Source: Flavobacterium sp.
GTDB taxonomy: Bacteria; Bacteroidota; Bacteroidia; Flavobacteriales; Flavobacteriaceae
Direction: 5' to 3'
Length of the DNA: 64,000 nucleotides
NCBI GenBank assembly: GCA_044361155.1
Contig: JBIKJF010000011.1
Span: 69-64,068, forward strand
Shown here: in pieces, positions 44,078 to 47,923 of the stretch
Layout of the letters: each line of letters opens with the position of its first letter
Position numbering within the stretch: the first letter of the stretch is position 1
Position numbers and translations under genes: made by a program
Notes under the pieces: generated by a model
What the model was told of the DNA's origin: nothing
Seen by the model: the letters and a program-made list of their open reading frames with translations, nothing else
Database searches by the model: none

Positions 44078-44413
44078 TTATAAAATTTTCTCAATTTTTT
44101 CAGGTTCAATTGAATGATGTGAATCTTTAAAAATCACTTTTTTATCTTTTAGAACAATAATTTGTGGTGATTGATGCGTAACGTTTAGCTGTTTGGCGAT
44201 GTAATTCGATACCGAGCGATACGTAAGTAAATCTAAGTAATTAAAATCGGCGGTTGCGGTCATTAGATCAGAGCCTTGCTCTAATCGTTCTTTGGCATAC
44301 GCACTAATGCCGCAAGTGGTACTATCTTTAAAAATAATTTGAGGCTTTAGTTCCGATGCGTTTATTATTGCGCTAACATCTTCGTCGCTTGTAATTTTTT
44401 TCCAGGTATTCAT
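44078..44413 (-). CDS. ytxJ: YtxJ-like monothiol thioredoxin-fold protein
   Basis: IFKDSTTCGIS, YLDLLTYRSVSN, VTHQSPQ. Confidence 0.85.
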   Translation of the reverse strand: MNTWKKITSDEDVSAIINASELKPQIIFKDSTTCGISAYAKERLEQGSDLMTATADFNYLDLLTYRSVSNYIAKQLNVTHQSPQIIVLKDKKVIFKDSHHSIEPEKIEKIL

Positions 44414-45538: not shown

Positions 45539-45615
45539 TTCTTGTTATTGTATTTTAATTTAAATCTTTCTATCTCAAATTGCAATAGATAAATAACTTA
45601 AGCAAAGATTTTGTT

Positions 45616-45717
45616 TGGCGACTGGCAGTAGACCATCCCAACCAAAAAGTACCACCATGCATTCAAAGAGCACCAATAGAAAAGGATGGTGAATATCGGT
45701 TGTTGTTGATTTGTTAG
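45616..45717 (+). pseudogene. C-terminal fragment of a DUF1826-like gene
   Basis: WRLAVDHPNQKVPPCIQRAPIEKDGEYRLLLIC*; in-frame stop at 45586-45588 and no start codon. Confidence 0.6.
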
Positions 45718-45735
45718 AAGATTAGATATTTTTAT

Positions 45736-46119
45736 TTAAAAAACATTCTCACTAAAAGTCAATATTGGTAAATAATCGACTTTGCTTAATTCATATTCAT
45801 CACAATACTCTTTCATCCATTTTTTGATGTTTGGATTGTTTTCTATCGAGATATCTTCTGAGAAATTTTCTTTTAGTTTTACTTCAAAATAATATTCGGT
45901 TGTAGAGTTTTCTTTACCTTTTATTTTTGATTTATGTTTGTGTTTGATAGATTCAATTTCACCAAAATAGGAGGTAAGGTGAAATGCTTTTGCACGACCA
46001 CCAGAATAGATTACAAGCTTTTTAGCATTGTATAAATCGTAAGGAAACTCCAATAAATTATTTTGTTTGTGTGTAGAATGAAAATAAAATATTTTTAATA
46101 CTAAATTGATTAAAAACAT
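45736..46119 (-). CDS. Hypothetical protein (start uncertain, may be a fragment)
   Basis: 127-aa ORF with protein-like composition after about residue 24; no recognised motif. Confidence 0.4.
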   Translation of the reverse strand: MFLINLVLKIFYFHSTHKQNNLLEFPYDLYNAKKLVIYSGGRAKAFHLTSYFGEIESIKHKHKSKIKGKENSTTEYYFEVKLKENFSEDISIENNPNIKKWMKEYCDEYELSKVDYLPILTFSENVF

Positions 46120-46242
46120 TTTTTTTATTTAAATAATTGAAAATGAATAGGTTTTAATTTTGTTTGTAAAATATTGATTTTGATCACATTATAATTTGTT
46201 TTTATGAAATAATGATCTAATATTTGCATTAAATCATTTATT

Positions 46243-46722
46243 ATGAATACATCTTTTGAACGTTGTGAAAACACTAAAGTTGAATGGTTAACACCACCAG
46301 AATTAGTAGAAAAATTAGGTAAATTTGATTTAGACCCATGTAGTCCAATCAATCCGCCATTTTTACATGCAACAAATAATTTCACAACTAATGATAATGG
46401 ATTGACTAAAAAATGGTTTGGTAGAGTTTATCTAAATCCACCATATGGAAGAGGAATGGAATTGTGGATGGAAAAATTAAAAATTCACGGAAATGGGATT
46501 GCATTAATTTTTGCAAGAACAGAAACAAAGTGTTTTTTTGAGCATGTTTGGAATGATGCAGATGCTGTTTTATTTGTAAAAGGTAGAATCAGATTTTATC
46601 ATGTTACAGGAATTCAAGCAGGTACTCCTGGAGCTCCAAGTGTATTTATAGCTTACGGTAAAGAAAATTCAGAAATACTTATGAATTCAGGAATTGAGGG
46701 ACGATTTATAAAATTGAAATAA
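46243..46722 (+). CDS. Phage-type DNA N6-adenine methyltransferase (Dam, PF05869-like)
   Basis: EWLTPPEL, FDLDPCS, DNGL...W, VYLNPPYG, LIFARTET, FVKGRIRF. Confidence 0.9.
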   Translation: MNTSFERCENTKVEWLTPPELVEKLGKFDLDPCSPINPPFLHATNNFTTNDNGLTKKWFGRVYLNPPYGRGMELWMEKLKIHGNGIALIFARTETKCFFEHVWNDADAVLFVKGRIRFYHVTGIQAGTPGAPSVFIAYGKENSEILMNSGIEGRFIKLK

Positions 46723-46929
46723 TTATAAAATTTCATAACAAATAAATTCTGCAACATTAAACTCAGAATCAATAATCCAATCATTTTCTAATAATAACTT
46801 TTTATAAGCTTCATTTTCATCAGAAACATTTTCGACAATACCGATTACTTGCATATTTTCAATTTCATTTCCGTTTGGTGAAAATGTACTTCCTTCTGGA
46901 GTTATAAATATGTATTTTTTCATTTCCAT
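46723..46929 (-). CDS. Small acidic hypothetical protein
   Basis: 68 aa, overlaps the end of the PLD-wH gene by 10 nt; its stop abuts the Dam stop. Confidence 0.6.
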   Translation of the reverse strand: MEMKKYIFITPEGSTFSPNGNEIENMQVIGIVENVSDENEAYKKLLLENDWIIDSEFNVAEFICYEIL

Positions 46930-47714
46930 AGTTTTCTGTAATGACCATTTCCTAAAAATTCAACTAATCCCAAATCTCTTAAATATTGAAGTTGTTGTCT
47001 TATTTTATCTGTTATATGCTCATTATTAGGATAAATTATTTTCAATTGGTTTTCAAATTTATTTATTTCAGTTGATGTAAATACCTGATTTGGAATTATA
47101 TTAATACATTTAAAAACTTCTAATTTCCAGCCTTTTAATGATGAAGATATTGTTTGGTTAGGTATTTCCAGAGTATCATAATTGTTTTCTGGTGATTCAA
47201 AATTAAAATTAGGAAATTTTACTGATTCATTTGATGGAATTTTTGATAATATTTCTTTTACTTTTTCTAAATGAGAAAGATTCAATTCACCAGTTCTTTT
47301 GTTATCAGATAATAAATTAAAATCGTTTGATACTTTAGAAACTAGGTTTTTCTCATTTGAATAAATTCCATACTCATAATTATTAACTAAACCTCCATAA
47401 GTTAAATTTCCGGAACTAATTATCACTTCTTTATCATCAAATAAATAAATTTTAGAATGAAGTTTTGAAAAATTTTTTACGATTCCTTTTTGGTTAATTA
47501 TCTTCTCAATTGCAGCAATATCCAAAGAACCTGAATAAATATTTCCAAGTTTGAATGAAGTTATTAGTTCTAATTTTACATTAGATTGTTTTGCAGATAA
47601 CATTTCATCACAAATATTTTCTTTAACGAAAGGAGATGTTATTTTTATTGATTTTTTTGAATTTGAAACTAATTCTAGAAAATCTGATTTCCAAGGTGTT
47701 GTAATTGTCTTCAT
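46920..47714 (-). CDS. PLD-family nuclease fused to a DpnI-type winged-helix m6A reader
   Basis: Single HKD motif LHSKIYLFD...ISSGNLT; C-terminal KGWKLEVFKCI...YPNNEHITDKIRQQLQYLRDLGLVEFLGNGHYRKL closely follows the DpnI C-terminal domain. Confidence 0.88.
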   Translation of the reverse strand: MKTITTPWKSDFLELVSNSKKSIKITSPFVKENICDEMLSAKQSNVKLELITSFKLGNIYSGSLDIAAIEKIINQKGIVKNFSKLHSKIYLFDDKEVIISSGNLTYGGLVNNYEYGIYSNEKNLVSKVSNDFNLLSDNKRTGELNLSHLEKVKEILSKIPSNESVKFPNFNFESPENNYDTLEIPNQTISSSLKGWKLEVFKCINIIPNQVFTSTEINKFENQLKIIYPNNEHITDKIRQQLQYLRDLGLVEFLGNGHYRKLWK

Positions 47715-47923
47715 TTTTTTATTTACAACTAATGAGTTAAATTCAAAAATGGTTTCGCTTGCATCTATAAAATATTTATCTCCAAACTTAATGATAATCC
47801 ATCACACTAAAAAATATTTTTAAGTTGAATAATCATAATAATTATGTCAGAAGAATAGTGTGCTTGGGTATTTTAAAACTAAAGTATAGTCAAATAAATA
47901 ATTGATTTTAGGGTTTTACTTTT

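Follow-up and report, generated by a model that had tools for sequence, protein, structure and literature searches.

Methylation of a DNA word and a nuclease that depends on methylation of the same word are textbook opposites, as in pneumococcal DpnI versus DpnII or Neisseria dam versus drg. In Neisseria, the low-GC gene drg encodes a GmeATC-specific endonuclease (NmeBII/Drg) and is found in place of dam (PMC516771, PMC4269198). Helbrecht et al. 2024 described a family of 27 enzymes, including Aba4572I and CbaI, in which a phospholipase D (PLD) domain is joined to a winged helix (PLD-wH) and which display Dam+-dependent toxicity (PMC11037411). Fewer than 100 potential conflicts were found among >1,000 enzymes and some of the adjacent methylases were inactivated by frameshifts, while Aba4572I itself adjoins a predicted CGATCG methylase, raising the possibility of self-restriction (PMC11037411). 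Here we analyze a 64-kb stretch of a Flavobacterium sp. genome (contig JBIKJF010000011.1; hereafter, the window) in which a phage-type N6-adenine methylase of 159 amino acids (aa) converges on an operon encoding a PLD-wH nuclease and a small acidic partner, and compare it with homologous loci from reference-genome and metagenome scans (labeled L###). A reading of the window based on its sequence alone had drawn attention to this pairing of a putative writer of N6-methyladenine (m6A) with a nuclease expected to cut what it writes. We find that the trio is a conserved cassette of freshwater Bacteroidota in which the methylase and small gene are constant and the nuclease is exchangeable.

Evidence for linkage comes primarily from a metagenome scan seeded with the methylase, which is unbiased as to partners and covers loci with a methylase at ≥72% identity and ≥250 nt of downstream sequence. 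The small gene lies tail to tail with the methylase in 46 of 47 such loci and in all 31 loci with ≥1,100 nt, and in 29 of these 31 a nuclease is encoded upstream of the small gene (20 DpnI, 5 PLD-wH and 4 of a third type, NmeDI_C). Four methylase relatives at 57–63% identity have neither small gene nor nuclease. A second scan of reference genomes, seeded with the nuclease, yielded 80 winged-helix loci, 17 of which display the order nuclease, small gene and opposite-strand methylase. The sequence-only reading would have been weakened had the genes never been linked in other genomes; overall, methylase, small gene and methyl-reading nuclease are linked in >60 loci. Because of this linkage, together with a conserved pair of GATC words in the methylase promoter (described below), the paradox is real and not a matter of chance adjacency.

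The convergent geometry is largely retained as well. Stop codons abut exactly in the window (46722/46723), as had been pointed out, and lie −6 to +26 nt apart in 36 of the 47 loci. An IS200-like Y1 transposase gene (153 aa, PF01797, 1.9e-31) separates the small gene from the methylase in L035, L039, L055, L070, L074 and L087 (for example, L087:4670-5131). Two near-identical metagenome contigs (L106:2924-3616 and L107:476-1168) contain the methylase and the small gene with ~500 bp of noncoding DNA in place of the nuclease and, therefore, the pair can persist alone.

These data bear on the possibility that there is neither conflict nor joint mechanism, and that a non-GATC or regulatory methylase and a stand-alone type IV nuclease merely share a defense hotspot. 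Arguments for this view are that 25 of 31 full-length PLD-wH loci contain no methylase, that winged-helix nucleases mostly stand alone with nearby methylases that are usually non-conflicting (PMC11037411) and that the 159-aa methylase is only 24% identical to T1 Dam. We nevertheless consider it unlikely, given a near-obligate linkage (46/47 and 29/31) that was held through at least 14 nuclease swaps, the fixed tail-to-tail geometry, an invariant pair of promoter GATC words in GATC-poor genomes and the lack of partners in methylase relatives below about 65% identity.

The GATC content of the window differs from what had been supposed. GATC sites were said to be plentiful but number only 48 in 64 kb compared to 158.7 expected (observed/expected ratio (O/E) = 0.30), which is the lowest O/E among all 16 palindromic tetramers in the window; the ratio is 0.34 in pooled cassette loci. 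The region from 44.3 to 50.4 kb, bounded by sites at 44266 and 50487, contains only two further GATC words; these fall within the methylase promoter, at −61 and −29 relative to the start codon. Separated by 32 bp, they form the closest-spaced pair in the window. A pair with 31–32 bp spacing is found in 39 of 51 distinct upstream regions, spanning all three nuclease types, and both tetramers are invariant in 30 aligned promoters while neighboring columns vary. Because this conserved pair sits in the methylase promoter, within GATC-depleted DNA, GATC is the word on which the cassette is predicted to act. Restriction–modification systems are known to use recognition sites within the promoter of their methylase for autoregulation. 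Each promoter GATC is located just upstream of a TA-N3-TTTG box which, in our own reading of the consensus, resembles the Bacteroidetes −7 element. Many loci also carry a CACAC-N5-GTGTG inverted repeat upstream of the GATC pair (for example, L009:6808-6910(-) and L051:3768-3870(-)), which is the sole conserved element of the 12 promoters without GATC words and may be a regulator operator or part of a divergent promoter. A self/non-self rule based on site density was considered and rejected, as the spacing of GATC in the window is ordinary apart from the promoter pair.

The identification of the 159-aa protein as a phage-type Dam with an NPPY motif (residues 65–68) is borne out by a match to Pfam Dam (PF05869; E = 3.9e-11, 43.4 bits versus a curated cut-off of 28.1). 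The protein also matches PHROG 111 'DNA methyltransferase' (6.4e-34) and is labeled as an orphan MTase by a PADLOC model. Its family comprises >120 clusters at ≥80% identity, all of 159–160 aa, with the invariant motifs FDLDPC, NPPYG and FARTETK, and full-length phage relatives of 150–160 aa are 45–55% identical. Of 66 assessable methylase copies, 60 are intact, and the gene is under purifying selection, with a median ratio of nonsynonymous to synonymous substitution rates (dN/dS) of 0.113 at dS of about 1.27. We infer that the enzyme would write m6A at GATC, as suggested indirectly by the conserved GATC pair of its promoter and by the past of the locus as a GATC system, although its family membership is remote; the literature on PF05869 specificities and Flavobacterium methylomes contained nothing usable. 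The nonspecific methylases Hia5 and Hin1523, first considered as members of PF05869, were rejected as a comparison since they are described as 281-aa Dam-like (alpha-class) enzymes. In environmental RNA data, contigs cover the methylase body only in one freshwater metatranscriptome and the nuclease in two other metatranscriptomes, a weak signal from unstranded data of low depth.

The PLD domain and DpnI-type winged helix that had been proposed for the 264-aa protein are both found. Its single PLD domain (PLDc_2, 2.4e-16) has an intact H86-x-K88-x4-D93 motif that is invariant across 25 relatives, and its C terminus matches DpnI_C (PF17726, 7.4e-28) and aligns to residues 185–257 of DpnI (PDB 4esj). 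In the DpnI structure, K229, R231, Q232, Q235 and E228 line two methyl pockets (PMC3424567). The pocket E228/K229/R231/Q232/Q235 corresponds to D236/K237/R239/Q240/Q243 of the window protein, such that K, R, Q and Q are kept and only E228 differs, as D. The match is limited to PF17726, with PF06044 missing, so the protein does not belong to the DpnI family proper; PLD plus winged helix is an architecture represented by 491 clusters. By analogy with its relatives, the nuclease is predicted to cleave in a Gm6ATC-dependent manner: the PLD-wH enzymes Aba4572I and CbaI are toxic in Dam+ Escherichia coli, and Gm6ATC dependence was experimentally established for FcyTI from Flavobacterium (PMC11037411). 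Nuclease copies are intact in 41 of 45 assessable cases.

Across cassettes, the nuclease slot holds three unrelated types: PLD-wH enzymes, true DpnI orthologues and HARE-HTH/NmeDI_C proteins. The nuclease of L035 is a DpnI orthologue (PDB 4esj, E = 1e-103) with both PF06044 (1.2e-80 in the orthologue of a sister locus) and PF17726, and it keeps the R135/W138 'RAGW' methyl pocket. The third type is 236–247 aa long, with Pfam NmeDI_C (PF27126) and a HARE-HTH-like N terminus; a DpnI-type winged helix is not claimed for it, as profile comparison against the PLD-wH alignment was negative. At least 14 changes of nuclease type map onto the methylase tree. The clearest example is L081, which is 94.8% identical to the window at the DNA level over positions 45591-46942, covering orf127 (a neighboring open reading frame (ORF) discussed below), the methylase and the small gene. 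Beyond the small-gene 5′ end this similarity is lost, and L081 has an NmeDI_C-type nuclease in place of PLD-wH. Given this boundary and the swaps of nuclease type, methylase plus small gene form the constant part of the cassette, with the reader-nuclease as an interchangeable module. The convergent layout would fit a classical type II restriction–modification pair, but, judging from the reading domain and from the DpnI orthologues, methyl dependence is predicted instead. Classical behavior may still apply to NmeDI_C-type loci.

The flanks of the cassette record its history. Just upstream of the nuclease start is a short frame (ATGCAAGCGAAACCATTTTTG, encoding MQAKPFL) with an early stop, identical to the first seven codons of the intact canonical dam in L083 and L072. 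Besides the window, at least 18 cassette loci have a dam stub upstream of the nuclease, ranging in length from about 18 to 78 codons, while full-length dam (PF02086, 1.5e-64) is kept in cassette loci L061, L083 and L099. On the other side of the methylase is a DpnA-like N6_N4 methylase whose 5′ end, with DPPY, is missing in every cassette locus and which is often full length in winged-helix loci without the 159-aa methylase. In the window, orf127 corresponds to the C-terminal domain that ends the 5′-truncated DpnA-like methylase in L099 (2746-3777) and L100 (2810-3841), and is what is left of the second methylase originally present at the locus; it weakly matches a phage PDDEXK_15 family (E = 0.0033) and is also found near DpnI-like genes without the 159-aa methylase (L040 and L062). 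Because a dam stub lies upstream of the nuclease and a truncated DpnA-like gene beyond the methylase, the locus is a former dam-nuclease-dpnA (DpnII-like) GATC system in which a methyl-dependent nuclease replaced dam. Transcription of the nuclease operon probably starts from the former dam promoter. Canonical GATC methylases decay beside these nucleases, as conflict predicts, and the 159-aa methylase is preserved. The dam stubs are consistent with the frameshifted adjacent methylases reported by Helbrecht et al. (PMC11037411).

Full-length dam ORFs of 301–343 aa with FxGxG and DPPY were observed in seven loci (L001, L057, L061, L072, L078, L083 and L099), where they either stop 0–2 nt short of the start of a nuclease gene (DpnI-like, PLD-wH or NmeDI_C-type) or overlap with it. 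This is a second, starker pairing of writer and reader. At the junction of dam (or its stub) and the nuclease, several loci contain a Flavo-1 RNA motif (RF01705, 44–62 bits; L061:5378-5456, L050:5377-5453, L099:5484-5566 and L118:5408-5486). It is always antisense to dam and the nuclease, the 'full-length' dam ORFs read through it, and it may be a mobile repeat mediating cassette exchange.

Derivation from a dam-R-dpnA type system, the many independent nuclease exchanges and the location of the swap borders, one at the 5′ end of dam and the other where the small gene starts, would all suit an evolutionary scaffold, in which methylase and small gene are only the flank of a cassette-exchange site like that of the pneumococcal DpnI/DpnII locus, kept as homology arms or for an alternating DpnII-like state. 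We regard this as improbable: among about 55 cassettes, only L083 combines dam with a possibly classical nuclease, the genuine flank genes (dam and dpnA-like) decay in the same loci, and strong purifying selection acts on both the methylase and the small gene (dN/dS of 0.11 at dS of about 1.27), which are mostly paired with DpnI-type nucleases.

An acidic composition had been claimed for the small protein and is confirmed (isoelectric point (pI) 4.05; 13 acidic and 4 basic residues), but the protein is most likely shorter than the predicted 68 aa. The conserved ATG at 46923 overlaps the stop codon of the nuclease gene (ATGA) and gives a product of 66 aa, and the two extra codons of the longer form (46723-46929) are confined to PLD-type loci. 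The partner is translationally coupled to every nuclease type and has a median dN/dS of 0.114 at dS of about 1.27. In its confident AlphaFold model (predicted local distance difference test score (pLDDT) 95.9), a long beta-hairpin is combined with a helix and a final strand, and fold searches in PDB and BFVD gave nothing significant (best E = 0.09–0.3). The family contains about 500 representatives at 50% clustering in a profile search and is assigned to PF27350 (AF_1447) by precomputed annotation. The family is also found after NmeDI_C nucleases, its distant members occur behind DpnI genes that have no 159-aa methylase nearby, and in many winged-helix loci the partner position is held by DpnD/PcfM proteins (PF14207). 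The partner has no profile match to PF14207, and hhalign against the DpnD alignment gave a probability of 1%, leaving no detectable homology between the two families. The long forms of the AF_1447-type partner and of DpnD nevertheless share a C-terminal tail, DYLW.DE..HYEE..HIF..LK (P0269, P0254, P0255, P0262 and P0301), and P0269 fuses an AF_1447-like to a DpnD-like domain, such that the two families look like alternative heads on one module. The partner is a general companion of these nucleases and the positional equivalent of DpnD. The small gene is absent from a plasmid collection and has one weak fusion match in a phage collection; the cassette is chromosomal. A 187-aa protein of an uncultured jumbo phage (L142:3129-3692; LR756500.1, 462 kb) ends in a partner-like beta-hairpin domain (KKFIVLTDEGTTMSPNGKDVENLQVLAILE) and could be an anti-restriction decoy, or merely share the fold.

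An acidic partner coupled to every nuclease type invites a further explanation, a three-part toxin–antitoxin or addiction module. The chromosome would be kept Gm6ATC, the nuclease would be a poised toxin and the acidic protein its labile inhibitor, possibly a DNA mimic binding the winged helix, and the nuclease would be released upon phage shut-off or if the cassette were lost. In L001, L057, L061, L072, L078 and L099, a full-length dam is directly coupled to the nuclease, which would accord with this explanation, as would the hairpin domain in a jumbo phage, where an anti-restriction protein might be expected, and GATC depletion, which chronic self-cutting would predict. Yet a neutralizing partner would make the loss of dam needless, and dam is reduced to stubs in most loci; this repeated loss of canonical dam beside the nucleases speaks against an inhibitor so potent that GATC could be methylated constitutively. 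The pneumococcal pair DpnI and DpnD is efficient at restricting methylated DNA, and proteins in the DpnD position are therefore not constitutive inhibitors. The partner also has no sequence or fold match to known inhibitors, antitoxins or DNA mimics. Overall, we consider an addiction module quite unlikely.

The reading we lean toward, tentatively and with somewhat less than even confidence, is that the cassette writes and then cuts: the 159-aa methylase would be the restrained marking arm of a restriction cassette and not a protective enzyme. The mark-and-destroy or conditional-suicide module proposed by the sequence-only reading is viable in this form and leads among the explanations, except that PLD-wH is one of three nuclease types and not the sole nuclease. 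Because canonical dam has been lost and the 159-aa enzyme kept, the simplest reading is that the latter does not fully methylate the chromosome at steady state. It would write m6A at GATC as the marking arm, with its output on resident DNA held below the nuclease's requirement of fully methylated GATC. Candidate restraints are a methylation-sensing GATC promoter of the methylase, head-on transcription originating in the nuclease operon, the scarcity of GATC on the chromosome and a limitation of the methylase to single-stranded or hemimethylated DNA, like DpnA, which is possible because the methylase physically displaced a DpnA-like gene. Foreign DNA entering or replicating in the cell would become Gm6ATC and would then be cleaved, and failure of control (for example, by shut-off of host transcription) would result in self-cleavage and abortive infection, with the small partner tuning either nuclease or methylase. 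The selective value of the methylase would lie in marking DNA that is otherwise invisible to the nuclease, with suicide as the failure mode. A wider claim, which we hold as possible but doubtful, is that of a restriction with inverted logic: a resident writer (PF05869, or DpnA-like in sister cassettes) would act with a methyl-dependent cutter, self would be spared by the timing or DNA form of writing plus GATC avoidance rather than by modification, and the DpnD/AF_1447 partners would be regulators.

Several observations weigh against write-then-cut. The methylase's kinship to known GATC enzymes is remote: its identity to T1 Dam extends over 112 aa, it scores 33.5 bits against TIGR01712, the equivalog of characterized phage N6A methylases, for which the cut-off is 97, and a fold search with its model returned weak Rossmann-methylase matches only, none significant (E ≥ 0.03). 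Methyl dependence of the NmeDI_C-type nuclease is putative. The proposed restraints are likewise not uniform. The GATC pair is absent from 12 of 51 promoters, so the device is not obligatory, and GATC depletion is also seen in loci without the cassette (O/E = 0.51) and could have been left behind by a DpnII-like enzyme that the locus encoded earlier. Convergent transcription, which had been proposed as the switch, is plausible but not essential, as 11 of 47 loci have 186–992 bp (IS200-like genes) separating the two convergent genes and head-on control is therefore not universal. Finally, full-length dam directly coupled to the nuclease in L061, L083 and L099 fits an inhibitor model better.

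All three ORFs claimed at the outset are present in the window, and the unit is wider than this trio, also including the dam stub, the methylase promoter and orf127 (Table 1). It is part of an island of 23–25% G+C (45.7–48 kb) between flanks of 33–37%. No terminator-like site was found between the convergent methylase and small gene, and there was no Rfam match within 43.5–49 kb of the window.

Table 1 Features of the cassette and its immediate flanks in the window
Feature	Position	Strand	Description
dam 5′ stub	47729..47764	-	MQAKPFLNLTH, then stop; 14 nt upstream of nuclease start; first 7 codons as in starts of intact dam
PLD-winged-helix nuclease, 264 aa	46920..47714	-	PLDc_2 + DpnI_C; HxKx4D
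Acidic partner, 66 aa, AF_1447/PF27350 type	46723..46923	-	ATGA coupling to nuclease
Phage-type N6-adenine DNA methyltransferase, 159 aa	46243..46722	+	PF05869, NPPY; convergent with nuclease operon
Methylase promoter (approximate limits), two GATC words	46170..46242	+	GATC at 46182-46185 and 46214-46217
orf127	45736..46119	-	Free-standing copy of C-terminal domain of DpnA-like (N6_N4) methylase

Precedents exist for the parts of this cassette (DpnI/DpnD, Neisseria drg and PLD-wH enzymes) and none for the whole, which is not described in PMC11037411. That both writer and reader are kept under purifying selection in dozens of genomes would imply either a new mode of self/non-self discrimination (mark, then cut) or a new controlled suicide module. 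The cassette also offers a handle on the function of proteins in the DpnD position and a candidate for a natural methylation-sensing promoter in Bacteroidota, and cultured carriers exist (Flavobacterium nackdongense, CP037933.1, with the NmeDI_C type, and Runella salmonicolor S5, with PLD-wH). In a further carrier, F. aureirubrum J3, a stop codon interrupts the nuclease gene.

The arrangement resembles the DpnI cassette of Streptococcus pneumoniae (dpnC-dpnD), in which a methyl-GATC nuclease is followed by a small coupled partner, and also the exchange of DpnI and DpnII (dpnM-dpnA-dpnB), since the locus alternatively hosts Dam-like and DpnA-like methylases that are swapped as a cassette; a Streptococcus DpnI locus (L036) likewise has a dam 5′ stub. 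In contrast to the DpnI cassette, the methylase here stays beside the methyl-dependent nuclease, the partner is of AF_1447 type and not DpnD/PcfM, and the window nuclease is PLD-wH and not PD-(D/E)XK. As with Neisseria drg, a nuclease has replaced dam, of which the window keeps seven codons; but whereas Dam activity and drg are alternatives in Neisseria, a second, phage-type methylase and a partner gene are retained here. The window nuclease has the same two-domain architecture as Aba4572I and CbaI. Where PLD-wH enzymes typically stand alone, a conserved convergent PF05869 methylase adjoins this one, the overlap in specificity being putative, and where conflicts are rare exceptions in the set of Helbrecht et al., this PLD-wH sub-lineage is fixed with the PF05869 methylase, the partner and the GATC-pair promoter.

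The nearest functional analogy may be Pgl of Streptomyces coelicolor (PMC4365076), which shares a modify-then-restrict logic and a methyltransferase that is toxic unless controlled and labels phage DNA for subsequent attack. The proteins are unrelated (PglX/W/Y/Z) and Pgl is without a defined methyl-dependent nuclease or GATC, so the presumed resemblance is functional only. Lastly, the methylase is, like the phage T1/HP1-type Dam proteins (PF05869), a small enzyme with a (D/N)PPY motif and no target recognition domain but, unlike them, it is chromosomal, lies outside a prophage and is linked to a nuclease for which its presumed product should be a substrate.

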